Shown here one piece after another: positions 10,004 to 22,316 of a stretch of 22,317 nt of DNA (the stretch's first letter is position 1; every line of letters begins with the position of its first letter). The DNA comes from an uncultured Elusimicrobia bacterium. Lineage in GTDB: Bacteria; Elusimicrobiota; Elusimicrobia; JACQPE01. Location of the stretch: contig CAYHKQ010000042.1 in NCBI GenBank assembly GCA_964357255.1, positions 1 through 22,317 of the forward strand, written 5' to 3'. The position numbers and the translations under genes are program-made. Under the pieces are notes generated by a model. That model ran no database searches and was not told the origin of the DNA. It worked only from the letters and a program-made list of their open reading frames with translations.

Positions 10004-10633
10004 ATGAATTTGTTGCTATTTTTTTTGGCGGGCGCTTTGAGCGCGTCGCCGACCGCGCGTCTTGAGGTCGGCAAGGGAACGGTTCATTTGATGCGCGCGG
10101 GATCATCGGTTTGGTTGCCGATTGAAACAAACACGGAAGTGTTGCAAGGCGATAAGTTGAGAACCTATGCCGATACCAAGGCGATTTTAATTTTGGCCGA
10201 CAGCTCGACGGTCGAACTGCATCCTTGGAGCTTATTGCAGATTGACAGCCTCGATAGTCAGGGTCAGAATTTTCGTCTTGATATGGGTAGCGTTCGCTCG
10301 AGGGTGGCCAAGTTCATGAGGCGTTTTCAAGTAGCGACCCCTGTGTCTGTTTGCGCGGCGCGCGGAACGGATTACAATGTGGCCGTTGACCCCGACCAGC
10401 AGGGCAAGACCAGCGTCAGCGTCGCGGAAGGCAAGGTTTCGGTCAAGGACGACAAGGGCGGGGAGGTCTTATTGGCCAAGGGCGATTCGGTGATTGTTTT
10501 GGCCGAAGGATTGCAGACCCCGGCGCGTTCCTCGCCGTCCGAGGAGTCCGAGTCGCCGCCCCGGCGCCGGCGATTGTTTTACAGCGTGATGGGCGCGTTT
10601 GTTTTTATCGCGGTTGCGTTGGTTGCGATTTAG
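10004..10633 (+). CDS. FecR-domain protein of 209 aa with an N-terminal signal peptide and a C-terminal TM anchor (RRRRLFYSVMGAFVFIAVALVAI). It has no N-terminal anti-sigma domain.
   Basis: Two FecR-like beta segments (LEVGKGTVHLMRAGSSVWLPIETNTEVLQGDKLRTYADTKAILILADSSTVELHPWSLLQID, and ATPVSVCAARGTDYNVAVD...VSVAEGKVSV). A GGGAGGA Shine-Dalgarno-like sequence sits 4 nt before the ATG. Confidence 0.6.
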   Translation: MNLLLFFLAGALSASPTARLEVGKGTVHLMRAGSSVWLPIETNTEVLQGDKLRTYADTKAILILADSSTVELHPWSLLQIDSLDSQGQNFRLDMGSVRSRVAKFMRRFQVATPVSVCAARGTDYNVAVDPDQQGKTSVSVAEGKVSVKDDKGGEVLLAKGDSVIVLAEGLQTPARSSPSEESESPPRRRRLFYSVMGAFVFIAVALVAI

Positions 10634-10634
10634 T

Positions 10635-10778
10635 GAAAGCTCGTAACTACCCAGGTCCCCTTGGATTCGTCATACCGGCGAAAGCCGGTATCCAGTGAAG
10701 GCAAATCCAAAGAAGGCCTGGATTCCGGCTTTCGCCGGAATGACGGGGAAGGGGAACCTGAGTAGTTACGAAAGCTCG
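10635..10778. mobile_element. MITE-like palindromic element, about 126 bp core (10644..10769), flanked by a 9-bp direct repeat GAAAGCTCG (10635..10643 and 10770..10778), a putative target-site duplication. Terminal inverted repeats are GTAACTACCCAGGTCCCC and GGGGAACCTGAGTAGTTAC. Internal twin hairpins are TACCGGC-GAAA-GCCGGTA (GNRA tetraloop) and TTCCGGC-TTTC-GCCGGAA.
   Basis: Read from the sequence. It starts 1 nt after the FecR-gene stop. Translating across it gives the spurious N-terminus WIPAFAGMTG of track ORF 10695..11189, a peptide signature I recognise from repeat-derived ORFs in other genomes. Confidence 0.5.
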
Positions 10779-10805
10779 ATAATTTATAATATTAGCGAGA
10801 AGCTG

Positions 10806-11189
10806 ATGATTAAAAAATTAGCAATCATGGCGTTGATCCTTGGGGTCAGCCAAGCGAGCGCTTGTTTGCTCCAATGCCAAGGCATGAGCAGCCATCAAAA
10901 TCGCCGGCCACAAACTTCATCCGCGCATCATTGCTGTCCTAATTCCAAGCGGTCCAAACAAGTTCCTTCTCACCCCGGAGCTGTTTGTTGCCTGGTAAAA
11001 TTTCAATCTCAAGATTCAACCCTGAAAGTCGCTTCGTTTCAAAAGACCGATATCGTTTGGTTGCCGCAGAGTAGCGGCCCGGATTCGGCCCAAGTGTTTC
11101 GCGGCCCGGTCTTGGAATCCGTTCTTCCTCAAAAAATTCCCAAACCTCTTGTTTGGGCTATTCGCCTTCTTCGTTCTCCTCCAGCATAA
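10806..11189 (+). CDS. Small secreted Cys/His-rich protein of 127 aa. Signal peptide MIKKLAIMALILGVSQASA, then CLLQCQG, HHCCP and AVCC motifs. Possible periplasmic metal-binding or redox protein. The track start at 10695 is an artefact of reading through the MITE.
   Basis: In-frame ATG at 10806 followed by a canonical signal peptide. Cys/His clustering. It sits between two MITE-like elements just upstream of the cus-like operon. Whether the gene is real is uncertain. Confidence 0.35.
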   Translation: MIKKLAIMALILGVSQASACLLQCQGMSSHQNRRPQTSSAHHCCPNSKRSKQVPSHPGAVCCLVKFQSQDSTLKVASFQKTDIVWLPQSSGPDSAQVFRGPVLESVLPQKIPKPLVWAIRLLRSPPA

Positions 11190-11423: not shown

Positions 11424-12674
11424 TTGAAGATTATTCTAGCGCCAGCGTTTGTGGTCATGCTTATTGTTCCGGCTATGGCTGAGGAGACTGTTTTCATTTC
11501 GACGGGATCCCTTACATTGAAGGAAGCCTTGGCCGAGGCCCGCGAGCGCAGTCCTGAAATTTTAGCCGCCCGTAAATTTTGGGAGGCGCTTGCGAGCAGG
11601 CCGGTTGGGGCGGCCGCGCCGGAGAATCCCCGTCTGGATATTGAAAGAATGTACGCGAGCGGCGGAAGGAACATTATAACAGGGGCCGAGGAAAAAAATT
11701 TTATGCTCAGCCAGGAGATTCCTTTCCCGGCAAAACTTCATTTGAGAAAGCGGGTGGCTTTAAAAGCCGCGGCCATGGCGGAGCAAGGGTATTTGGCCAA
11801 GATCAGGGACGTGCTGGCCCGGGTCCGTTCGATCTATGCCATGCTTTATCTTTCACACAAAAATTTGGAATTGTTTAACGAGAATATTGAGTTGTTGCGC
11901 CGTTTTGCCAAGGTGGCTGAGTCAAAATACGCGGCCGGCCGCGCGAGCCAATCGGACGTCCTTAAGGCCCACGTGGAATTGAGCAAGATGCTTAATATGC
12001 TCGTGGTTGTTAATCAGGACAAGGAGGCGGCCGGGTTCATGCTCAACGCGCTTTTGGGCAGGGCCCCGGAGTCGGCATTAGGGGTTCCGGTTGATCTTGA
12101 TTCAAAAAAATTGGACTACAGTCTCGACGAGCTTGAGCGCCAAGCCTTGCAATCGCGTCCCCAACTGCTCGAAGCGGCGCTCGGCGTGGAGCGGGCCGCC
12201 GGCGCGCTTTCATTGGCCAGATCGGAATTTTTTCCTGATTTCATGCTTCAATACCGCCAGCGCCGCGATTCTATGCGTGGAAGTTCTCAGGACGCGATGA
12301 TTGGATTTACGATCCCTCTTTGGTTTTGGAAGCCCGCGGCCATGGCGGCCGAGGCCAAGTCGGAGTTGCAAATGTTTCAGGCCCAACTGCAGGCCACCAG
12401 GCTCATGACCCTGTCCGAGGTCCGCGCTTCCTTTGTCCGGGCCCGGACAAGCCAGCGCCTGATTGAACTTTATCGCAACGGCGTCTTGGCGCAGGCCGAG
12501 GGGGCGCTTAAAGTGGTTGAGGCGAGTTATCAGGCCGATAAGGCGAGTTTTCTGGACTTGGTGGACGGACAGCGCGCATTTTTGAATTTTAAGCTCGAAT
12601 ACTACCAATACATCGCCGAGTACGAACAACGCCTCGCGGAGCTAGAGCGCGCTGTTGGAAAGGAGTTGCTATGA
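11424..12674 (+). CDS. cusC: Outer-membrane efflux protein of 416 aa (TolC-like outer-membrane factor, CusC/CzcC type). TTG start 4 nt after a GGAGG Shine-Dalgarno sequence, followed by a signal peptide.
   Basis: Signal peptide MKIILAPAFVVMLIVPAMA. Two repeated alpha-helical coiled-coil/beta segments typical of OEP-family proteins. Its stop overlaps the next gene's ATG (ATGA at 12671..12674). Confidence 0.8.
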   Translation: MKIILAPAFVVMLIVPAMAEETVFISTGSLTLKEALAEARERSPEILAARKFWEALASRPVGAAAPENPRLDIERMYASGGRNIITGAEEKNFMLSQEIPFPAKLHLRKRVALKAAAMAEQGYLAKIRDVLARVRSIYAMLYLSHKNLELFNENIELLRRFAKVAESKYAAGRASQSDVLKAHVELSKMLNMLVVVNQDKEAAGFMLNALLGRAPESALGVPVDLDSKKLDYSLDELERQALQSRPQLLEAALGVERAAGALSLARSEFFPDFMLQYRQRRDSMRGSSQDAMIGFTIPLWFWKPAAMAAEAKSELQMFQAQLQATRLMTLSEVRASFVRARTSQRLIELYRNGVLAQAEGALKVVEASYQADKASFLDLVDGQRAFLNFKLEYYQYIAEYEQRLAELERAVGKELL

Positions 12675-14059
12675 GAAAAAATAAACTTGTGATTTTAATC
12701 CTTGCGGTTTTTATCTTTGGAGCCGGCGGCCTGGTTGTGCGGTTTCGCCGTGGAGCAAGTCATGGCGCTGGAGTCGCCCCAGAGGCGGTCCGTTATTATT
12801 GTCCGATGCATCCTACTTATACCTCGGATCGCCCCGGCGCTTGTCCGATTTGCAACATGTCTCTTGTGCCCATGGAGACGCCGGATGCTTCCGGGGCCGC
12901 GGCTCAGAATCCTGCCGGTTCCGGAAAAAAAGTCTGCCTGCTTCACAACTGCAACATGGCCAATTGCCCCATGGAGTTAGAACTCAAACCAGGCCAAAAG
13001 GTGACATGTCCCGTATGCGGGACTCATGTAGAGGAGGCGCAAGAGCTTGCTCAAGGAAAAATTCTCTATTACCGTCATCCCGTGCGGCCGGAGCTAACGT
13101 CCCCGTCGCTCAAAAAGGATGAGATGGGAATGGATTACGTGCCTGTCTATGCCGAGAAACAAGACGTTCGGGTTCCGGTCGGGGGCCAAGCCGGCGTGAC
13201 TTTGACGGCGGAGCGCCGCCGGCTCATTGGCATGGAATCGCAGGCATTGGTAAGACGTGATTTAAAATTTACGGTCAGGGCCAGCGGCCGCGTGGCTTAT
13301 GATCCTGATCTTTACAACGCCATTGCGGAATATCGGGAGGCTGTGCGGACTAAAGAACAGGTCAAGGAGAATTCCTGGCCCGATGTCCAGGATCGTTCCC
13401 AAGCTTTAGTGAGGGCTTCCCTTTTGAGATTGAGACAGTCGGGTTTATCTGAGTCTCAAATTGAAGATATTGCCCGGAGCACGGGGGCGCAGTCAACTAA
13501 TCTCCTTTTGGGAGGTTCCGAAGAAAGCGTCTGGGTCTATGCCCAGATTTATGAGTATGAGATTGGCTTTGTCAAATCCGGCCAGAGAGCCGAAATTACA
13601 ACCCCGGCTTATCGGGGACGGAAATTTTACGGCACGGTTAAAGCGGTGGACCCTATCCTTTCCGCGGAAACCAGGTCTCTTAAAGTCCGTATCGAGGTTC
13701 CCAATCCCGAGGGGCTCTTGAAGCTGGAAATGTATGTCAACGCGGAGATCCGCGTGGACATTGGATTTAAGCTTGCCCTTCCCGAGGAGGCGCTTATGGA
13801 GACGGGCGAGCGTCAACTCGTTTTTATTGACCTTGGCCAGGGGCGCATTGAGCCAAGAGAGGTGCGCATCGGCCAAGAGGCGAAGGGTTATTATGAGGTC
13901 ATCTCCGGCATCCGCGAAGGCGAGAGGGTCGTGACATCGGCCAATTTCCTCATTGACTCCGAGTCGAAACTGAAGGCCGCCATTTCAACCTCGAAGGACA
14001 AGGCCAAGGGCAAGGGCGACTCCCAACCCGCCGATTCTTTTTCGGAACACAGGCATTGA
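12671..14059 (+). CDS. cusB: Efflux RND periplasmic adaptor (membrane-fusion protein) of the CusB/SilB type, 462 aa. N-terminal TM anchor. It has a heavy-metal-binding motif YYCPMHPTYTSDRPGACPICNMSL, an additional Cys cluster CLLHNCNMANCPMELELKPGQKVTCPVCGTHV, and the degenerate YYRHPVRP...KDEMGMDYVPVY motif. The C-terminus is His-rich (SEHRH).
   Basis: The CPMHP...CPICxM motif is characteristic of Cu(I)/Ag(I) adaptor N-domains. Beta-barrel/lipoyl-like segments follow (VKAVDPILSAETRSLKVRIEVPNPEGLLKLEMYVNAEI). Translational coupling with cusC. Confidence 0.85.
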   Translation: MRKNKLVILILAVFIFGAGGLVVRFRRGASHGAGVAPEAVRYYCPMHPTYTSDRPGACPICNMSLVPMETPDASGAAAQNPAGSGKKVCLLHNCNMANCPMELELKPGQKVTCPVCGTHVEEAQELAQGKILYYRHPVRPELTSPSLKKDEMGMDYVPVYAEKQDVRVPVGGQAGVTLTAERRRLIGMESQALVRRDLKFTVRASGRVAYDPDLYNAIAEYREAVRTKEQVKENSWPDVQDRSQALVRASLLRLRQSGLSESQIEDIARSTGAQSTNLLLGGSEESVWVYAQIYEYEIGFVKSGQRAEITTPAYRGRKFYGTVKAVDPILSAETRSLKVRIEVPNPEGLLKLEMYVNAEIRVDIGFKLALPEEALMETGERQLVFIDLGQGRIEPREVRIGQEAKGYYEVISGIREGERVVTSANFLIDSESKLKAAISTSKDKAKGKGDSQPADSFSEHRH

Positions 14060-14066
14060 GGCTTTT

Positions 14067-17000
14067 ATGGTCAGAAAACTTATAGCTTGGTCGGCGCACA
14101 ACAAGTTCCTGGTGATGGCCTTGACGGCCGTTTCCATGGTGGCGGGCTGGTATTGCATGAAGAACATTCGGCTCGACGCGATTCCGGACCTCTCGGACAC
14201 GCAGGTCATCGTCTATTCCCGATGGGATCGCTCTCCCGACATCATCGAGGACCAGGTCACTTATCCGATTATCACCGCTCTCCTGGGAGCTCCGAAGGTC
14301 AAAGCTGTGCGCGGTTTTTCCGACTTCGGCTTCTCCTACGTCTACGTCATTTTCGAGGATGGCGCCGACATCTACTGGGCGCGTTCGCGCGTGCTGGAGT
14401 ACCTGAGCAAAATTCTGCCGCAGATGCCCGATGGTGTGCGCACCGAGCTTGGCCCTGACGCTACGGGCGTGGGCTGGGTTTACCAATACGCCCTTGTCGA
14501 CAAGACGGGCCGGCACAGCCTCGCCGACTTGAGATCCTTCCAGGATTGGACGTTACGCTATTACTTGCAGTCAGTTCCGGGAGTGGCCGAGATCGCTTCT
14601 ATCGGAGGCTTCCAGAAACAATATCAGGTGCAGGTTGACCCCAATGCGCTGGTCGCCTATCGCATCCCGCTCGGCCGAGTCGTTGACGCCATCCGCGACG
14701 GCAATAACGACGTTGGCGGACGGCTTGTCGAGTTCGCGGGCACGGAATACATGATCCGCGGCCGCGGCTACGCTAAGTCGGTCGAAGACATCGAGCAGAT
14801 CGTCGTCGGCCGCGACACGCGCGGCACGCCTGTCCTGGTCAAGAGCATAGCCAAGGTGACCTTGGGCCCTGATATCCGGCGTGGCATCGCTGATCTTGAC
14901 GGCGAGGGCGATGTTGTCGGAGGCATCGTGGTGATGCGCCATGGCGAGAACGCCCTCAACGTCATCAAAAGGGTCAAGGCGCGCCTCGATGAGGTCGGGC
15001 CCTCGTTGCCGGAAGGAGTCGAGATCGTCAAGACCTACGATCGCTCCGAGCTCATCGAAGGCGCCATTGCCACCTTAAAGGATGAGCTTTTTATGCAGAT
15101 GTTGTTGGTCAGCCTTGTCATCCTTGTTTTTCTCTGGCACATTCCCTCCGCGATTGTGCCGATCGTGACGATTCCGATTTCGACGGTGCTGGCCTTTATT
15201 CCTTTGTACTTCATGGGCGTGAGCGCCAACATCATGTCTATCTCAGGGATCATGCTGTCCATCGGCGTGCTCGTGGACGGCTCTATGGTGGAGGTGGAGA
15301 ATGCTTATAAGAAGCTACAACTTTGGGTCGCGGGAGGGCGCAAAGGCGATTTTCACGCCGTGCGCCTGGAGGCGTTGCAGGAGGTCGGGCCCGCGGTGTT
15401 TTACTCTCTAATGGTCGTGGCCGTCGCTTTCTTTCCGATTTTCGCGCTCGTGGACCAGGAGGGCAGGCTCTTTAAGCCGTTGGCCTACACAAAGAACCTG
15501 ACAATGCTCCTGGCGGCGTTTCTCGCCCTGACCCTGGATCCGGCTGTGCGCATGATGTTCTCGCGCATGAACTATTTTGTGTTCAAGCCGAATTGGCTCG
15601 CGTGGACCATCAACCAGATTACCGTCGGCCGCTATTACGCTGAGGAAAAGCACCCGATCAGCAAGGGTTTGTACCGCCTCTACGACCCCGTCTGCCGCTG
15701 GGTGTTGGAGCGGCCGTGGAAGGTGATTGGGGCCGCCGTACTCATCACCCTGGCAACCGTGCCGATTTACCTCAAGCTGGGTTCTGAGTTCATGCCTCCG
15801 CTCAACGAGGGCACGATTTTGTACATGCCGACGACCTTGCCGGGGATATCGGTCACTCAGGCCGCGGACTTGCTTAAGAAGCAGGATGAGATCCTTAAAA
15901 GCTTTCCGGAGGTGGAGCGGGTTTTCGGTAAGGCGGGCCGCGCCCAGACCTCGACCGACCCGGCCCCTTTTTCAATGATGGAGACCACCGTAATCCTCAA
16001 GCCAATGGACCAGTGGAGGAAAAAAGAACGGTGGTATTCCCTGTTCCCGGAGTTCTTCCAGAAGCCATTGCGGCGTGTCTGGTGGGACAGGCTCACCTGG
16101 GACGAACTGGTCGCCGAGATGGACAAGCGCATGAGGTTCCCGGGCGTGACCAACGCCTGGACCATGCCGATTAAGGCGCGCATTGATATGCTGACTACCG
16201 GAGTGCGCACACCCATTGGTATTAAGGTCTACGGGGCGGACCTAGCGCAGATCGAGGCGGTGGGGCAGGAGATCGAAGCGGTCCTTCGCGAGGTTCCGGG
16301 GACGCGCTCCGTCTATGCCGAGCGCACTGCGGGCGGCTATTTCGTTGACTTCCGGCTCAAGCGCGAACAGTTGGCGCGCTATGGTTTATCCGTCAAGGAG
16401 GTCGAGATGGTCATCATGTCAGCCATTGGCGGTGAAACAGTCACGACCACCATCGAAGGCCGAGGGCGCTATAGCGTCAACGTCCGCTACCCGCGCGAGC
16501 TCCGGGACAATCTCCCCAAGCTCAAGCGGGTGCTCGTGGCCACAATGGACGGCGCGCAGATTCCCCTGGCTCAGTTGGCCGACATCGAATTGACGATGGG
16601 CCCGGCGATGATCCGCAACGAGAATGGGATGCTGGCCGGTTACGTCTACGTGGACGTTGCCGGACGCGACATTGGAGGCTATGTCGAGGAAGCCAAGAAG
16701 AAGGTCGCTTCGGTGGTGGACCTTCCTGTCGGCTACGCCATTGGGTGGAGCGGCCAGTATGAAAACATGGTGCGCGTGCGCGAGCGCATGACCCTGGTCC
16801 TTCCTTTGACCCTGGTGATCATCGTCCTGCTCATGTACATGAACACCAAGTCCTGGATCAAGACGGGGATCGTAATGCTGGCGGTGCCATTTTCGCTCAT
16901 CGGCGCCTTCTGGGGGTTCTATCTCCTCGACTACAACCTCTCGGTGGCGGCCTGGGTGGGCATGATCGCGCTCATGGGCCTTGACGCTGAGACGGGCACC

Positions 17001-17357
17001 TTCATGTTGCTCTACCTCGATCTGGCCTACGCCGACGCGGTGCGCGAGGGCCGAATGCGCAACTACGAAGACTTAAAGGAGGCGGTGATGCACGGCGCGG
17101 TCCGGCGCATCCGCCCTAAGATGATGACGGTGTTCACCGATTTTCTCGGCCTGATGCCGATCATGTGGTCGCTCGGCACGGGGGCGGATCTCATGAAGCG
17201 CATTGCCGCGCCCATCATTTTTGGGCTGTTCACGAGTTTTGCGCTCGAGCTTGTGGTCTACCCGGCGATTTTTCTCCTCTGGAAGTGGCATGGCGATATG
17301 CGAAAGGGAACGGTGGACGTAAATCAACTTCCGGTCCCGGAGATTCGGGAGTATTGA
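14067..17357 (+). CDS. cusA: Heavy-metal efflux RND transporter of the CusA/CzcA family (HME-RND), 1,096 aa, with 12 TM helices.
   Basis: Length, TM pattern and conserved HME-RND blocks. The TM4 proton-relay block reads SIGVLVDGSMVEVEN (S-D-E). This matches the monovalent Cu/Ag type A-D-E more closely than the divalent D-D-E type. Confidence 0.93.
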   Translation: MVRKLIAWSAHNKFLVMALTAVSMVAGWYCMKNIRLDAIPDLSDTQVIVYSRWDRSPDIIEDQVTYPIITALLGAPKVKAVRGFSDFGFSYVYVIFEDGADIYWARSRVLEYLSKILPQMPDGVRTELGPDATGVGWVYQYALVDKTGRHSLADLRSFQDWTLRYYLQSVPGVAEIASIGGFQKQYQVQVDPNALVAYRIPLGRVVDAIRDGNNDVGGRLVEFAGTEYMIRGRGYAKSVEDIEQIVVGRDTRGTPVLVKSIAKVTLGPDIRRGIADLDGEGDVVGGIVVMRHGENALNVIKRVKARLDEVGPSLPEGVEIVKTYDRSELIEGAIATLKDELFMQMLLVSLVILVFLWHIPSAIVPIVTIPISTVLAFIPLYFMGVSANIMSISGIMLSIGVLVDGSMVEVENAYKKLQLWVAGGRKGDFHAVRLEALQEVGPAVFYSLMVVAVAFFPIFALVDQEGRLFKPLAYTKNLTMLLAAFLALTLDPAVRMMFSRMNYFVFKPNWLAWTINQITVGRYYAEEKHPISKGLYRLYDPVCRWVLERPWKVIGAAVLITLATVPIYLKLGSEFMPPLNEGTILYMPTTLPGISVTQAADLLKKQDEILKSFPEVERVFGKAGRAQTSTDPAPFSMMETTVILKPMDQWRKKERWYSLFPEFFQKPLRRVWWDRLTWDELVAEMDKRMRFPGVTNAWTMPIKARIDMLTTGVRTPIGIKVYGADLAQIEAVGQEIEAVLREVPGTRSVYAERTAGGYFVDFRLKREQLARYGLSVKEVEMVIMSAIGGETVTTTIEGRGRYSVNVRYPRELRDNLPKLKRVLVATMDGAQIPLAQLADIELTMGPAMIRNENGMLAGYVYVDVAGRDIGGYVEEAKKKVASVVDLPVGYAIGWSGQYENMVRVRERMTLVLPLTLVIIVLLMYMNTKSWIKTGIVMLAVPFSLIGAFWGFYLLDYNLSVAAWVGMIALMGLDAETGTFMLLYLDLAYADAVREGRMRNYEDLKEAVMHGAVRRIRPKMMTVFTDFLGLMPIMWSLGTGADLMKRIAAPIIFGLFTSFALELVVYPAIFLLWKWHGDMRKGTVDVNQLPVPEIREY

Positions 17358-17375
17358 TCATCATGGAAATGATCT

Positions 17376-18263
17376 ATGCCTTTTAAATTTAAGCGCGAAG
17401 AGATCCGTAGGAGGAATCACCGTCGTCCTTGGCATCCACGCAACGCCGCTGTGATGCTTGCCTTGTTGAGCGCGGGGTTGGGGCAGGCTTTTGCTGAACA
17501 GGCGCATCATCAGGCCGGCGCCGCTACGGTGCGGGCGGGTCAGTGGATCGCTCAGCCCTGGGAGACAGGCGAGGAACGTTTGCGCTGGCGCATATTCGGT
17601 TCATATTTGTCCTCCCAATCCCGATTCGACGCGCTCGGCGATCGAGTGGCGCTTGAGAATAACGGACGTTATTCTAACTTTGGACTGAACGCCTTTTTGG
17701 AGTATGCGTTGAACCCGCGTTGGAGCATTGCCGGACTGGCTCCGTTGCAATGGTCCAGGCTTTCGGATGACTTGAGCCGTGAGCGTTGGGTCAATGTCGG
17801 AGATACGTATGGCTGGGTCCGCCGCTCTATTGAAGGGAATGCGCGCTGGAGCGCCGGCGCGCTGGCTGGAATCAAGATTCCGGGAAATTACCGGCCGGGC
17901 GCCGCTACGGGGGACCGTCAAACGGACATGGAGGCTCAAGGGTTTTTGGGGCACGGTCTTGGCCGCGGCAGTTTCGCATCTTTAGGTTCCGGATATAGGG
18001 TCCGTTTCGGGAGTCCATCTGATGAAATTTTTTTTAACGCGCAGTTCGGCTGGAACCCCGGGAACGGATGGCTTCTCGTGCCGGCCGCCGCCGGCGCCCT
18101 GGGCGTCGGAGGGGGCGTTCCTAAAGACTTCCTTAATGCCGGGGTTACTATTTTTCGTTCCCTGCGGGGCCCATGGAGACTTCTAGGCTCCTATAATCGT
18201 GTTATTGCGGGCAAAAATACGGTGAGCGCCGGCGTCTGGGCGCTAGGAGTTTCATATCAATAG
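17376..18263 (+). CDS. Putative outer-membrane beta-barrel protein of 295 aa from the first ATG. The signal peptide is more plausible from Met27 at 17454 (MLALLSAGLGQAFA|EQAHH). It is Gly-rich with an alternating hydrophobic pattern. Family undetermined.
   Basis: Track ORF directly downstream of cusA with an 18-nt gap. The amphipathic beta-strand periodicity and the aromatic-rich C-terminal strand (VWALGVSYQ) suggest an outer-membrane barrel. An AGGAGG-like sequence at 17409..17414 lies between the two candidate starts. Confidence 0.5.
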   Translation: MPFKFKREEIRRRNHRRPWHPRNAAVMLALLSAGLGQAFAEQAHHQAGAATVRAGQWIAQPWETGEERLRWRIFGSYLSSQSRFDALGDRVALENNGRYSNFGLNAFLEYALNPRWSIAGLAPLQWSRLSDDLSRERWVNVGDTYGWVRRSIEGNARWSAGALAGIKIPGNYRPGAATGDRQTDMEAQGFLGHGLGRGSFASLGSGYRVRFGSPSDEIFFNAQFGWNPGNGWLLVPAAAGALGVGGGVPKDFLNAGVTIFRSLRGPWRLLGSYNRVIAGKNTVSAGVWALGVSYQ

Positions 18264-18297: not shown

Positions 18298-19836
18298 ATG
18301 GCGGCTATGGCCATAGTCCTTTGGATAGCGCCAAGTGTCCTGATTTTTGCCCAGGAACACGCAGGGTTCCGCCATGGAGAGTCCGCAATGGCCAAGGTTC
18401 CTTCGCAACATTCTGACGATGAAATTGCGGCCAAAGAGTTTGGCTTGAATCTTGAAACCTGGAGCGGACTCACGCGCATGGGCCATGCCGTGGCAACCTG
18501 GAGGATGAAACCCATCCCGGAAAGGCGAATCATTCTTTTCGATTTTTCCTATCGTCGCTCGTTGGCCTTAAATAAAGCGCAAGAGTTATTGAAAGCCGGA
18601 GAAGATGCCGATTGCGAAGAGATCCGCTTTTTAAGGATTTATTTGGGAGATGGGGCCATGCGCCCGATACTTCTGAAACACGAAAAAAGCGAAGCCCATC
18701 TGGCGCATGAACACCCCGGCAAACCTCCGCTGGCCGGGGAAGGACAACGTCCCGCAGAGCCGGTAGTTAAGGATATTAAGCTCTGCCGCATCAACTGGGA
18801 CGGCCCAAAGGAGCCGACAATTCCTTCTCCTGTTCCGCTTCCTGGGGGAGGATTCGATTCTCACGAAGGCCATCGCGGTCATTCTTCGGGAGGCATCACT
18901 CGCGATCATGGGAATTCCAGGCACGAAGACCATCGTAGAGGTTCGGGAGGAGGTGGCCCATCGCAGGGTCATGAAAATTCTCATCGCCAAGGTTCCGCCG
19001 GCGGACCAGATGATGCTCGTCATGGCCCAGGCGCTTCTCGTTCTGAGGGCGCCCAGCATAACTCAAGCCACGGCCAATCTCTCAGCATCGCGCCTGCTAC
19101 GAGCGCCGGCGCTTCTCATGTTCACGCGGCTAAGGGGGGATCGAACGCGATGTCGAGTCCTCGGCATAACAGCGAGCCCGCTAGCCTTCATGGCGATCTG
19201 GCTCATCCCCAACCAGTTTATGGGCGCTCCTACGAAAGACCGGTTGCTGGTTTTTCAAAAAACCATGCCCATGTTCCATCGTTAATGAATTCTCCGGCTA
19301 AGGCCGGCCAAGAGGGAGATCATCGTTTGCATTCATCTTCTGATTACAGCGCTATTGTTGACCATGGAGTTCATCAAATATCGCATGAAGCAAGTTCGCC
19401 TCAAGGGAGTTTCCAGCGCCACGCGCGTCATTCTCAGGCAACTCAAGACCCTGGCCTTCCTCACCATGCCGTGGCTCATGGGACGCCAGATTCAAATTTT
19501 CCAAGCGCTGTCCATGAAAGCGTTTTTGGCCATCGTGCCGTAGATGACCATCAGGAACGTCACAAAAGCCTTGCGGCAAGGCAAACTAATGGCGCCCCTG
19601 CAGATATTGCCGCAAGCCACGTTCATCACAATGATCACTCAACCCACCAAAAGCAAGACATTGAACGCCCTGCCAAGGAAAACTTATCGCCAGGCTCGGA
19701 TGTTGATCAAAAGGGAAATATCCCTCCGTGGCCCTGGAAGGGGGCTGTCTTGTTTGCCTCTGTAGCCTATGCCGGAGCGCTTTGGAAGCGGCGTAAAGTA
19801 GGGCCGCAATTCAGAAATTCGCAAAGGAGGAAATGA
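18298..19836 (+). CDS. Histidine-rich protein of 512 aa. It has a hydrophobic N-terminal signal-like segment (AMAIVLWIAPSVLIFA|QE) and a roughly 150-aa globular N-domain. A roughly 300-aa Gly/Ser/His-rich low-complexity region follows. By my hand count it holds about 37 His, with no Cys and few Met. The C-terminal TM anchor (GAVLFASVAYAGALW) carries a basic tail (KRRK). Putative periplasmic, membrane-tethered metal-binding or metal-buffering protein.
   Basis: Track ORF with degenerate H-x-x-S-x-H / GH / HxH repeats. An alternative start at 18388 (ATG 7 nt after GGAGAG) would remove the signal segment. No recognisable enzyme motif. Confidence 0.7.
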   Translation: MAAMAIVLWIAPSVLIFAQEHAGFRHGESAMAKVPSQHSDDEIAAKEFGLNLETWSGLTRMGHAVATWRMKPIPERRIILFDFSYRRSLALNKAQELLKAGEDADCEEIRFLRIYLGDGAMRPILLKHEKSEAHLAHEHPGKPPLAGEGQRPAEPVVKDIKLCRINWDGPKEPTIPSPVPLPGGGFDSHEGHRGHSSGGITRDHGNSRHEDHRRGSGGGGPSQGHENSHRQGSAGGPDDARHGPGASRSEGAQHNSSHGQSLSIAPATSAGASHVHAAKGGSNAMSSPRHNSEPASLHGDLAHPQPVYGRSYERPVAGFSKNHAHVPSLMNSPAKAGQEGDHRLHSSSDYSAIVDHGVHQISHEASSPQGSFQRHARHSQATQDPGLPHHAVAHGTPDSNFPSAVHESVFGHRAVDDHQERHKSLAARQTNGAPADIAASHVHHNDHSTHQKQDIERPAKENLSPGSDVDQKGNIPPWPWKGAVLFASVAYAGALWKRRKVGPQFRNSQRRK

Positions 19837-19839
19837 CCT

Positions 19840-20214
19840 ATGTTCCAACTCATGAAATCAAAAACACTGCTTAGCGCAATGTTGTTAACGATGGCTCTGG
19901 GATTGGCGGCGATGGCCGCTAACGACTCATACAAGAAAAAGCCCGGCCATCACCCCGCATGCCCCATGAAAATAGAAGGGGCGGAAGTCCGCGTGGATAA
20001 TATTGAATCCGGCGTGGTGGTTCATATAACAGCCGAGGATCCGGCTGTCGTCAAAAACATTCAGGATACGGCTTCCCGAATGGTTCAACATCATTCCCAG
20101 AAAAAGGGAGGGGCTAAAAAGGAAATTTATTCCTGCCCCATGAATGACTACTCCGGATCCCAGACCAAAGATGGCCGTTGCCCTAAATGCGGCATGAATC
20201 TTGAGAAAAAGTAA
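19840..20214 (+). CDS. Small secreted protein of 124 aa with a standalone heavy-metal-binding domain. Signal peptide, N-terminal HHPACPM, and a C-terminal YSCPMNDYSGSQTKDGRCPKCGMNL (the same Y-x-CPM...G-x-CP-x-CGM-x-L motif as the CusB N-domain). Candidate periplasmic Cu(I)/Ag(I) metallochaperone.
   Basis: Motif identity with the adaptor metal-binding motif in 12671..14059. Signal peptide MFQLMKSKTLLSAMLLTMALGLAAMAA. It lies 4 nt after the His-rich gene. Confidence 0.7.
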   Translation: MFQLMKSKTLLSAMLLTMALGLAAMAANDSYKKKPGHHPACPMKIEGAEVRVDNIESGVVVHITAEDPAVVKNIQDTASRMVQHHSQKKGGAKKEIYSCPMNDYSGSQTKDGRCPKCGMNLEKK

Positions 20215-20257: not shown

Positions 20258-20449
20258 ATGACGATGAAAAAATGGAATAGACGCGGAGAAGCGAGCATAG
20301 GCATAATTCTCATCATGGGGGCCATGATGCTGGGCATGTTCTTGTTGCATAAGTTTAAAGGGAGTCGCTCAAGCGATCATTCTGATGGCAAGTCGGGCGC
20401 CGCCCAGGAGCCTGCGGAGCATAAGTCGAGCGAAGGGGGACACCATTAA
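20258..20449 (+). CDS. Small single-pass membrane protein of 63 aa with a charged, Ser/His-containing C-terminal tail ending HH.
   Basis: Strong Shine-Dalgarno sequence AAAGGAG about 6 nt upstream of the ATG. One TM helix (SIGIILIMGAMMLGMFLL). Last gene on this strand before a convergent gene. Confidence 0.45.
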   Translation: MTMKKWNRRGEASIGIILIMGAMMLGMFLLHKFKGSRSSDHSDGKSGAAQEPAEHKSSEGGHH

Positions 20450-20526: not shown

Positions 20527-21471
20527 CTATACGGATATGCCCCAGATGCTTTTGACGCCGAGGCCGATGACGTAGGTGACGCCTACGGCTGTGGCGAGGA
20601 TGACAAAATTGACCGCAATTCGGCGCTTGATGTTCATTCCGGAAAGGAACGCGAGGATGTAGGAGATCAGCGCCACCATGCAAGCCGAACTGGCCAAAGA
20701 CGCGAGGACGTTTTTGGCTCCCAAGAGCACCGGCATCACAGGGATTATCGCGCCGACAAGATAGCTCGCCCCGACTATCGCTCCCGTGGCAAGCGGGTTT
20801 TCGCCGTCGTCTTGAGGTTTCGCGTCGGGATCGAGGAAACGCTCTTTGGCGGCATCTATTCTTTTGACCTCGCGTTCCGAAGTGGCCGCGACAAAGGCTC
20901 CGGCCGCCATGGAAAACGCTCCGGCCGCCGCCACCGTCGAGCTCGCGATTAAAATTGCGGACGGTTCGTTGAAAGCCGCGAAAAATCCGCTCACAGCCCC
21001 GAGGATTTCTACTAAGCCGTCGTTTAAGCCGAGGAATATGCTTCTGATTCGTTCGGGATTAATTTTTCTTTGCGTTAACTGGGAGACGATTTGATCCTCG
21101 TGTTTGAGTTCGTCGGCAAGGATTTCTTTGACGGCTTCCCCAAGGGGGGCATTCTTGTTGGTTTCCCAGATGTCGAGGTACTTGCGGATTCCGTAAATTT
21201 CAATGGCTTCGAGAACCAAATGGATGCCGGTTGACCGGAACAATCGGCACGCCAAGACAAGAAGGCGCAGTTTGATGCGTTGCGGCATGTCCAGGTTTTT
21301 AACCTTGACGCCGGTAAAATTTTCCCAAAAGGCATGATGCTTTTGTTCGATCGGGATGAGTTCTTCGAGAATTTTGCGCGGCCCCGGGGCGCTGACCCTG
21401 GAGAGTTCTTTGTAGAGCGTCAGGTCGAACAGTTCGTCCGCGACGAGGCTATGGGCCAGTTTGGGATTCAT
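20527..21471 (-). CDS. mbfA: Ferritin-like (erythrin) - VIT1/CCC1 fusion protein of 314 aa. A membrane-bound ferritin-like Fe/Mn transporter of the MbfA type.
   Basis: The N-terminal four-helix ferritin-like region carries Glu/His ligand motifs (ADELFDLTLYKE...EQKHHAFWEN...LEAIEIYG...LADELKHED). The VIT1 signature is ERIRSIFLGLNDGLVEILGAVSGF, and a C-terminal TM bundle follows. The ATG overlaps the upstream gene's stop (ATGA at 21468..21471). Confidence 0.85.
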   Translation of the reverse strand: MNPKLAHSLVADELFDLTLYKELSRVSAPGPRKILEELIPIEQKHHAFWENFTGVKVKNLDMPQRIKLRLLVLACRLFRSTGIHLVLEAIEIYGIRKYLDIWETNKNAPLGEAVKEILADELKHEDQIVSQLTQRKINPERIRSIFLGLNDGLVEILGAVSGFFAAFNEPSAILIASSTVAAAGAFSMAAGAFVAATSEREVKRIDAAKERFLDPDAKPQDDGENPLATGAIVGASYLVGAIIPVMPVLLGAKNVLASLASSACMVALISYILAFLSGMNIKRRIAVNFVILATAVGVTYVIGLGVKSIWGISV

Positions 21472-22316
21472 GGGAAGTCCTGGGCGCGGATGCCTGGGTC
21501 GAGTTCCAATAGTGTGATCCCTTGCGCGTCCATAAATTCGGCGTTGACGCTTCCCTTCACGCCAATGACAATAAAGGCGAGGGGGTCTTGCTTGCGGCGG
21601 CCTTGGAGAAAGCGGATGAGATCGAGAAAATCACTGTCGCCCGTGGCCAGGGCAATGACGTCGAGCCGGCTGGAGCGCTCGAGCACGTCGAGCGCCATTG
21701 CGATATCAACATTGCAGGTATAACCGCCGTTCTTTCGCTTGTTGGCCTGCTTGCCCATAATCTCGTAATGCTTATCACGCAGTTTATTTTGCTCTGTTTT
21801 TGCGTCTTCTCTGAGGTAGGCGACGCGCATGGACACAAAAAAGTCTTTGTTGTGGGCGCTTATTTTTTGTTCCAAAGCCTCGGCGATATCAGTCGCGCTC
21901 TGAGCGCGCGCCGTCTTTTCCTGCAGGCAGAGCCGGATATTTTCAAAATCAACAAATAATCCGGCGCGTTTGAGCGAGGTGGCTTTTTGGGCCCTGCTCT
22001 TGAGGTTTTCAATTACAATCTCTTGCTCGCGGCATTGCAGGGACGCGGCGCCGAGTTTTTCGGCGGTTGCCTTGAGCTCCGCCTCGCATTTTTGGAACTC
22101 ATCGAGACGGTTGTCTTTTTTTCCTGAAAATTTTTCCAGTTTATTTTTCGTTTCTTGAAGCTCGCGATTGAGCCGGTCCATCTCGATGTGGGCCTTTTTG
22201 AGTTCCTCTCTTGTTTTTTTGAGCTGGTTTTGAGCGCGGCCGTTCTCTTGGGCGCCGCCATCGGGCTGTTTGTTCTCATGCGCAGGGGGTTGCGGCAGGG
22301 GCGGTTTGTCCGGCAT
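21468..22316 (-). CDS. NYN/LabA-like (DUF88) domain protein with a long N-terminal coiled-coil, at least 282 aa. Its start lies at or beyond the window edge. Putative RNase or RNA-binding protein.
   Basis: The NYN core reads AGLFVDFENIRL...YTCNVDIAMALDVLERSSRLDVIALATGDSDFLDLIRFL...AFIVIGVKGSVNAEFMDA. The coiled-coil is Lys/Glu-rich (ELKKAHIEMDRLNRELQETKNKLEKF). The first Met is at 22316, one base from the window end. Confidence 0.7.
   Translation of the reverse strand: MPDKPPLPQPPAHENKQPDGGAQENGRAQNQLKKTREELKKAHIEMDRLNRELQETKNKLEKFSGKKDNRLDEFQKCEAELKATAEKLGAASLQCREQEIVIENLKSRAQKATSLKRAGLFVDFENIRLCLQEKTARAQSATDIAEALEQKISAHNKDFFVSMRVAYLREDAKTEQNKLRDKHYEIMGKQANKRKNGGYTCNVDIAMALDVLERSSRLDVIALATGDSDFLDLIRFLQGRRKQDPLAFIVIGVKGSVNAEFMDAQGITLLELDPGIRAQDFP

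Follow-up and report, generated by a model that had tools for sequence, protein, structure and literature searches.

The window analysed here is a 22,317-nucleotide stretch of DNA from an uncultured Elusimicrobia bacterium (contig CAYHKQ010000042.1, positions 1 to 22,317), and it carries on its forward strand (+), at 18298..19836, a gene for a histidine-rich protein of 512 residues. Judged from sequence comparison and structure modelling, this protein is on balance probably an inner-membrane-tethered, high-capacity periplasmic buffer or collector of metal that serves the CusCBA pump of the Cu(I)/Ag(I) type encoded beside it. It appears to belong to a previously undescribed and very rare family which, in the present data, occurs only in groundwater Elusimicrobia. 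The full-length family consists of five sequences: the window protein, the proteins P0002 and P0004, and the genes at two further loci, L002 and L003. All five share one architecture, formed by a signal-like N-terminus, a Q(x)HxGH motif, a conserved head domain, a disordered region, and a C-terminal hydrophobic segment followed by a tail rich in arginine and lysine.

The members of the family were sought with an exhaustive phmmer/HMMER scan of residues 22-186 against 1.84 billion cluster representatives, which returned only the protein itself and three relatives, that is, four clusters. The relatives are P0002 (593 residues, 52% identity, E 4e-41), P0003 (183 residues, a fragment on an 809-nucleotide contig, 39% identity, E 3e-21), and P0004 (357 residues, 38% identity, E 3e-14). 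P0002 corresponds to MBI2069490.1, a hypothetical protein of another Elusimicrobia metagenome-assembled genome (MAG), and aligns with residues 40-504 of the window protein. A protein identical to that of the window, P0001, is annotated as a hypothetical protein of 509 residues in the Elusimicrobiota MAG GCA_038059855.1 (contig JBBTIS010000272), where NCBI places the start of the gene at the second methionine, M4 (18307). Pattern scans of genome and metagenome collections yielded six loci, L002 to L007, which were confirmed by tblastn. All genome loci belong to groundwater MAGs of Elusimicrobia. Two loci come from the Hainich H41 groundwater metagenome, namely L006, which is the window's own organism, and L007, which is the same as L004. 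The word-indexed protein search is near-blind for this family, in that it missed the query's own protein and its profile version missed P0001, P0002, and P0004, so that its negatives are unreliable. No plasmid record matches the family, and Pfam and NCBIfam, searched at E up to 0.01-10, have no family for the window protein or any of its relatives.

The open reading frame (ORF) of 512 codons that was described beforehand from the DNA letters is present, and its product is strongly enriched in histidine. The count is 45 rather than the 37 or so obtained by hand in that preliminary description, which amounts to 8.8% of the protein compared with 1.5% in the 13 other proteins of the window (binomial P ~1e-20). 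The description of the protein as free of cysteine was wrong: there are two, C106 and C163, both invariant in the family and among its most conserved residues. At the centre of the protein a histidine-rich segment of low complexity had been noticed, and this is confirmed. Residues ~171-475 (305 residues; 18808..19722, +) consist of 12.1% histidine, 12.1% glycine, and 14.1% serine, with no cysteine, two methionines, and 12.5% hydrophobic residues, and in an AlphaFold2 model from the single sequence residues 126-478 are without secondary structure, with a predicted local distance difference test score (pLDDT) mostly below 50. Composition and model together predict that residues 171-475 are disordered. 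What had been taken for a tract of degenerate HxxSxH, GH, and HxH repeats is better described as a compositional bias than as a repeat array: Tandem Repeats Finder detects no DNA-level repeats in the histidine-rich part, and the motifs are few (H..H nine times, H.H three times, GH four times). Only two pairs of histidine and methionine lie within four residues of each other in the disordered region.

The same composition is found in the relatives. The disordered regions of the family have 9.5-16% histidine, no cysteine, and few methionines in every full-length member, and their lengths are 305, 303, 316, and 314 residues in four of the five, with 105 residues in P0004. Their sequences, however, are unrelated between lineages, being made of serine, alanine, and histidine in the window protein and P0002 and of (GGGGHGS)n-like stretches in L002 and L003. 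The histidine enrichment of the disordered region is thus conserved while its sequence turns over.

In front of the disordered region lies the head domain (residues ~36-166, about 130 residues; 18403..18795, +), which is predicted to be all-helical. It has 29 invariant columns in six sequences, including W55, G57, L58, R60, G62, W68, D82, F83, C106, E108, R113, YLGD115-118, P123, L125, H128, E129, S131, H134, A136, H137, I160, and C163. The columns H128, E129, S131, H134, A136, and H137 belong to an invariant motif, HEKSEAHLAH (18679..18708, +), whose family form HE(K/E)SxxHxAH is a candidate metal site of the head domain, its residues being presumed ligands. The two cysteines are encoded at 18613..18615 (C106, +) and 18784..18786 (C163, +), and C163 likely pairs with C106 as a periplasmic disulfide or else serves as a metal ligand. 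AlphaFold2 run on the single sequence is useless for the head domain (pLDDT 42), whereas a four-sequence alignment gives a confident all-helical core, with pLDDT 84-95 for residues 39-128 and modelled helices at about 37-47, 52-60, 65-70, 73-100, 106-120, 122-129, 132-138, and 155-163. Neither the head domain nor any member of the family has a sequence match in Pfam, NCBIfam, or the PDB, and a fold search among solved structures with the head domain returned no match and no similarity to a CnrX-type or other sensor fold. These searches bear out the earlier remark that the N-terminal domain has no recognisable motif, and indicate that the head domain is a member of no recognised family.

The two ends of the protein point to export and anchoring. 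Signal-peptide and transmembrane calls were made from hydropathy, composition, and comparison with relatives, and the cleavage site is deduced in the same manner. Residues 1-18, MAAMAIVLWIAPSVLIFA (18298..18351, +), form a predicted signal peptide with a Kyte-Doolittle (KD) hydropathy of 2.0, at the place where the relatives have canonical signal peptides; their N-termini are hydrophobic signal-like segments with a normal basic n-region (MKFPQAR..., MKLR...). Directly after it stands the conserved mature N-terminus QEHAGFRHG (residues 19-27; 18352..18378, +), which follows the family pattern Q(x)HxGH in the alignment with relatives. Its equivalents are QEHEGHH in P0002, QHEGHGG in P0004, QGHGGHEGH in L002, and QGHGGHN in L003, each right after a plausible cleavage site, and in the family members a variable stretch rich in proline and histidine separates this motif from the head domain. 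At the other end, residues 478-496, WPWKGAVLFASVAYAGALW (19729..19785, +), are the putative membrane anchor, supported by hydropathy, by an AlphaFold2 helix at 480-509, and by the relatives, in which the equivalent segments reach KD 1.2-2.7; the assignment in the window rests partly on those relatives in which this segment is markedly hydrophobic, at KD 2.1-2.7. The anchor is followed by a basic tail, KRRKVGPQFRNSQRRK (19786..19833, +), with seven lysines or arginines in 16 residues (KRRK...RRK), predicted to be cytoplasmic, and tails of this kind range from 9 to 50 residues across members. The hydrophobic bracketing of the protein that had been proposed is therefore sound at the N-terminus and in the presence of the C-terminal segment with its KRRK tail, while the transmembrane character of that segment in the window is only marginal (KD 0.88).

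A basic tail that flanks a transmembrane helix sits in the cytoplasm, by the positive-inside rule. Translation probably starts at 18298 or 18307, which would place most of the protein in the periplasm, exported and anchored at its C-terminus. This periplasmic reading is favoured because the signal-like segment and the Q(x)HxGH motif are conserved upstream of an internal methionine, M31, which itself is not conserved; because the basic stretch after the C-terminal helix fits an N-out/C-in orientation; because the invariant cysteine pair suits an oxidising compartment; and because all neighbouring small partners carry signal peptides. There is no other in-frame start between the stop at 18244 and 18298. 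A C-terminal sorting signal was considered as well and rejected: NCBIfam models for PEP-CTERM, LPXTG, GlyGly-CTERM, and others give no match at E up to 1 in any member, the tail lengths differ, and the residues before the C-terminal helix vary (WPWK/WPWR, SKFLIL/SRFLIL, GGRAWL).

The mature N-terminus QEHAGFRHG may itself be an amino-terminal metal site. A Q(x)HxGH-type start is present on neighbouring HMBD proteins too, and starts of the Q(x)H type resemble amino-terminal Cu(II)/Ni(II) sites of the XH/XXH type, so that they could constitute a shared N-terminal metal tag, although cyclisation of the N-terminal glutamine might block the metal site. As a separate observation, several distinct secreted proteins of the L002 and L003 clusters begin their mature chain with Q(x)HGGHGGH-type motifs, with histidine at position 2 or 3; such starts occur at L002 9021-9581 and 18042-18500, at L003 8943-9488 and 18043-18579, and in the window at 18352-18378.

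The gene is placed among genes for metal efflux. Upstream of it, on the same strand, lie the genes of a CusCBA-type efflux pump (11424..17357, +; Pfam, and CusA as best PDB match), which encode an outer membrane efflux protein (OEP; 11424-12674, +), a membrane fusion protein (MFP) with an N-terminal HMBD (12671-14059, +), and a CusA-like RND protein (14067-17357, +). The RND protein matches E. coli CusA with E 6e-289, against 4e-138 for ZneA, and keeps the three CusA methionines (LYMP, SMMET, RIDML). The placement of the gene in a metal-efflux operon of the Cu(I) type, as first described, is thereby confirmed. Between the pump genes and the histidine-rich gene, immediately upstream of the latter, is g295 (17376..18263, +), which encodes a secreted protein of 295 residues with no known family: it has no match in Pfam (E up to 10), NCBIfam, or the PDB. 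In L004 a 50% identical homologue of g295 (501-1328) directly precedes the family member, and the mature chains of g295 and this homologue both start with AHHQAGA; as a guess, g295 might be an outer-membrane barrel that partners the histidine-rich protein. Three nucleotides downstream of the histidine-rich gene begins the gene of a secreted HMBD protein of 124 residues (19840..20214, +; Pfam HMBD, E 4e-7), a candidate periplasmic Cu(I)/Ag(I) chaperone, which has orthologues in the clusters of L002 and L003 and, in L008-L010, immediately after P0002. The last gene on the strand is g63 (20258..20449, +), for a small protein of 63 residues with a single transmembrane segment and a histidine-rich tail (...EGGHH); its homologue in L005 (1712-1873) has a faint DUF2933 match (E 0.46). 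No CusF domain was detected by Pfam among the window ORFs scanned.

Gene order varies between the loci. In the window and L006 the order is CusCBA, g295, the histidine-rich gene, the HMBD gene, and g63, on the same strand and with short gaps. L002 and L003 have two secreted HMBD genes, the histidine-rich gene, OEP-MFP(HMBD)-RND, a Haem_bd gene, and an orthologue of the window HMBD gene; their RND proteins are 75-76% identical to that of the window, and the coordinates of the histidine-rich and OEP ORFs overlap by 4 nucleotides. At the P0002 loci, L008-L010, two YHS genes precede the histidine-rich gene, which is followed by an HMBD gene. In L005 (872-1715) the RND gene is followed by no more of the family protein than its signal peptide and some 85 residues, then by a SnoaL/DUF4440-like gene and the homologue of the 63-residue protein; this is evidently a decayed or replaced copy, and indicates that the gene is dispensable in some lineages. 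The histidine-rich gene thus moves within, yet stays inside, a set of genes for Cu/Ag efflux and small Cys-based metal-binding proteins. The preliminary description had weighed the chance that the histidine-rich tract is a common linker of unrelated contexts without metal-related neighbours, which is not borne out: metal genes adjoin every locus with enough context.

Several further features of these loci were recorded. The window RND protein differs from E. coli CusA by two insertions of about 14-22 residues, at query positions ~497-523 and 653-676. A Haem_bd gene (PF14376) follows the RND gene in the two relatives of high GC content, L002 (17539-18045) and L003 (17212-17970), at the place where the window has g295 and the histidine-rich gene, and the SnoaL/DUF4440-like gene of L005 (1182-1715) overlaps the family remnant in another frame. 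A gene for a FecR-domain protein (10004-10633) and an unassigned ORF of 164 residues (10695-11189) lie just upstream of the pump genes in the window; they probably stand outside the system, because they have no counterparts in related loci. Directly downstream of the operon are a convergent VIT1-family gene, iron/manganese transporter-like (20527-21471, -), and an NYN-domain gene (21468-22316, -). Beside the P0002 operon there is a divergent pair of a HisKA kinase and a sigma-54 response regulator (L008 5115-8681, -), and small ORFs with recombinase and integrase genes occupy L008 12474-17608; these surroundings suggest possible regulation and a mobile-element neighbourhood.

In the preferred reading, that of a tethered metal buffer, the protein would be a type-I-like inner-membrane protein, in which a cleavable signal peptide directs export of the chain and a C-terminal helix, flanked by the basic cytoplasmic tail, holds it in the membrane. 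About 300 disordered residues would form a tether that extends into the periplasm, with roughly one residue in eight a histidine, no cysteine, and almost no methionine, and at its far end would stand the helical head domain with the HE(K/E)SxxHxAH motif, the cysteine pair, and the histidine-bearing amino terminus. The many imidazoles, as many weak sites, would capture periplasmic metal ions and hold them near the pump. The recipients of the metal on its release would be the secreted HMBD or YHS proteins, CusB with its own HMBD, or the head domain. In this scheme export, topology, disorder, metal binding, the identity of the metal, and its hand-over are all inferred.

Several observations weigh against this buffer. 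The main tension lies in its chemistry: a chain that uses only histidine and is poor in methionine would be better matched to Cu(II), Zn(II), or Ni(II) than to the Cu(I)/Ag(I) presumed for the pump. Periplasmic Cu(I)/Ag(I) binders usually use methionine, often together with histidine, and the disordered region has its two methionines only. Imidazole pairs can nevertheless hold Cu(I) and Ag(I), as a matter of general coordination chemistry. Linear Ag-L2 complexes have been discussed (PMC5008109). The conservation of the head domain suggests a function more specific than bulk buffering, and the hand-over step is without precedent, because SilE does not interact with SilF or SilB (PMC10407283). 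The gene context is looser than the operon of the window would imply, in that L008 has no RND pump within 10 kb, and the link is then with metal-binding genes generally and not strictly with CusCBA. Finally, the window copy may be inefficiently expressed or inserted: its signal peptide has no basic n-region (no lysine or arginine) and no upstream Shine-Dalgarno sequence, its codon adaptation is weak, and its anchor is weak (KD 0.88 over a window of 19 residues, bracketed by WPW...LW).

A different division of labour, unlikely on the whole and yet the most serious of the alternatives, makes the head domain the functional unit and the histidine chain mainly a long flexible spacer, a tether that spans the periplasm like TonB or TolA with inverted polarity. 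The chain would place the head domain near the outer membrane, docking for example on g295, CusC, or the HMBD proteins, and the task of the protein would be assembly, regulation, or feeding of the pump and not bulk buffering of metal. Strong sequence conservation is confined to the head domain, with its 29 invariant columns including HE(K/E)SxxHxAH and the two cysteines; the near-constant 303-316 residues of the disordered region in four of the five members, free in sequence, would amount to a defined reach; and the pair of g295 and the histidine-rich gene recurs in L004. A pure spacer, however, need not retain 10-16% histidine in every lineage, the region of P0004 is only 105 residues long, and g295 is absent from L002, L003, and L008. 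The spacer and the metal buffer are mutually compatible. A more speculative picture, improbable at present, is that of a new kind of accessory of the RND pump, built on a fold without known relatives, that acts as a 'histidine fishing line': the chain of about 300 residues, conserved in length, would collect metal across the periplasm and relay it by ligand exchange to the head domain or to the HMBD chaperones and CusB, while the head might dock on the outer-membrane side (g295/CusC), so that the protein would be a directional relay and not a passive sponge.

The protein could also be a periplasmic metal sensor or regulator, in which a metal-induced conformational change modulates the RND pump or a histidine kinase, for example that of the sigma-54 system adjacent to P0002. 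The 3-His/1-Glu motif may be read as resembling sensor sites in general, the divergent HisKA and sigma-54 response-regulator pair adjoins the P0002 operon, and SilE has been proposed as a regulator (PMC10407283, PMC5008109). Such a role is nonetheless improbable: the cytoplasmic tail, at 9-50 residues, lacks both conservation and an output domain, the head domain showed no similarity to a CnrX-type or other sensor fold, and the window, L002, and L003 have no conserved regulator genes next to the histidine-rich gene.

Less probable again is translation from M31 (18388), which would turn the product into a cytoplasmic, tail-anchored, histidine-rich protein, buffering the metal of the cytoplasm much as Hpn does. 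The window sequence does offer an internal ATG with a good Shine-Dalgarno sequence, GGAGAG, 6 nucleotides upstream of 18388 (18376..18390, +, for the two together), and none before 18298 or 18307, and the upstream signal peptide is without basic residues. Against this, residues 1-30 are conserved at the protein level in P0002, P0004, L002, and L003, as a hydrophobic segment and then QEHxGH, and M31 has no counterpart in any of these four. The strongly basic segment past the transmembrane helix argues for the C-in/N-out orientation, the invariant cysteine pair fits an oxidising compartment, and all neighbouring partners are secreted. The preliminary description had treated the choice between 18298 and 18388 as an unsettled dilemma; its observation on the Shine-Dalgarno sequences stands, but comparison of the relatives favours the upstream start. 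M31 is thus disfavoured as the main start, and minor internal initiation may still occur.

The coding status of the ORF deserves mention, since the histidine-rich part has an unusual composition. Its codon-usage score, trained on the well-supported genes of the window, falls below zero in frame 0 but is higher in frame +1, and its G+C content at third codon positions (GC3) is 0.41-0.42, compared with 0.55-0.78 in most neighbouring genes (0.58-0.78 in the pump genes). The GC3 drop in the disordered region recurs in all four orthologous genes examined (L002, L003, L004, and L008), which with the window makes five genomes; for example, GC3 of this region in L002 is 0.71, compared with 0.88-0.95 in neighbouring genes. 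The frame +1 signal is compositional, because the codons of histidine, glycine, alanine, proline, arginine, aspartate, and glutamate begin with G or C and the hydrophobic xTx codons are rare. That the ORF is a decaying or non-functional frame, such as a frameshifted remnant in which the histidine-rich frame is not under selection, is highly improbable and was rejected: the codon scores, the low GC3, and the truncated relative L005 would agree with it, but frame 0 is open for 512 codons against 15 stops in frame +1 and 26 in frame +2, the frame +1 ORFs have no family match above the cutoff, and the architecture and the GC3 drop recur in four other genomes. With ORF and architecture conserved in at least five genomes, the remnant that the preliminary description had named as the result that would overturn it finds no place, and the comparison of sequences indicates that the ORF is a real gene, conserved yet unnamed, of groundwater Elusimicrobia.

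The family is unannotated, its members being 'hypothetical proteins' at NCBI with no Pfam or NCBIfam model. If metal is bound as predicted, three consequences follow. Cus systems without CusF, in deep-branching uncultivated phyla, would use other accessories, namely HMBD and YHS proteins and a tethered chain; selection would be able to fix the composition and length of a disordered region while its sequence drifts; and the new small helical domain, with its signature of 3-His/1-Glu/2-Cys, may represent a periplasmic metal site of a novel type. In practice the gain is modest: metal-resistance loci of groundwater MAGs can be annotated better, and a high-capacity metal-binding module may become available.

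When compared with known systems, the protein shares features with several and could be assigned to none: membership in the SilE/PcoE, CusF, Hpn, C-terminal sorting-signal, and CnrX/NccX-type sensor families was rejected in each case. Like CusF and SilF, it would be a periplasmic accessory encoded with a CusCBA pump, in a window where no CusF was found among the ORFs scanned. CusF, however, is a small folded beta-barrel (OB-fold) with a His/Met/Met/Trp site, while the window protein has no CusF domain and a head that is modelled as all-helical; for the CusF-like chaperone role in the operon, the secreted HMBD protein (19840-20214) is the more plausible candidate. Hpn proteins are small (~60-70 residues) and cytoplasmic, have ~25-47% histidine, and contain cysteines or glutamine tracts. 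The window protein has in common with them a high histidine content and a presumed multi-site metal capacity of low specificity, but its 512 residues include 8.8% histidine (12% in the disordered region), export and anchoring are predicted for it, and it has no homology to them. The idea put forward earlier, of a large membrane-tethered metal sponge rich in histidine and poor in methionine, is accordingly a reasonable one, while its likeness to Hpn does not go beyond a loose functional analogy, given the missing homology, the lower histidine density, and the other compartment. CopM (DUF305) is a cyanobacterial periplasmic 'metal sponge' proposed to sequester copper (bioRxiv 10.1101/013581), and like the window protein is a helical periplasmic or membrane-associated protein; here there is no DUF305 match or fold match, and CopM has no long histidine-rich tether.

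The closest parallels are with SilE and PcoE, the 'molecular sponges' of the sil and pco operons for Ag and Cu, both disordered periplasmic proteins of the His/Met type (PMC5008109, PMC10407283). The window protein resembles them in being, by prediction, secreted and largely disordered, with many presumed histidine ligands and a likely role in periplasmic metal buffering, and its gene, like theirs, shares a Cu/Ag resistance cluster with the genes of a pump of the CusCBA type. It differs in showing no sequence homology (no Pfam match, and none in the plasmid records, where sil and pco reside), in being about four times larger and C-terminally membrane-anchored where SilE and PcoE are small and soluble, and in lacking the paired His/Met motifs MxxHxxxxxHxxM and HxxMxxxHxxM (PMC5008109) as well as any MxxH/HxxM repeats, with two methionines in 305 residues. 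It also has a folded head domain and two cysteines, which SilE does not have. A second parallel is the N-terminal region of PcoB (CopB), likewise disordered, periplasmic, histidine-bearing, and poorly conserved, which is attached to a membrane protein in a copper system. The tether in the window protein would be the inner membrane, through a single helix, and that of PcoB is an outer-membrane barrel; the region is ~300 residues long and uses only histidine, as against ~75 residues with His/Met in PcoB; and no CopB domain is present, g295 being without a Pfam match at E up to 10. Homologous to neither, the window protein is best read by analogy as working like SilE/PcoE or the N-terminal region of PcoB. 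It would then represent a third deployment of the disordered histidine-rich metal binder in the Gram-negative envelope, next to the soluble form (SilE/PcoE) and the form fused to an outer-membrane channel (PcoB): one tethered to the inner membrane.

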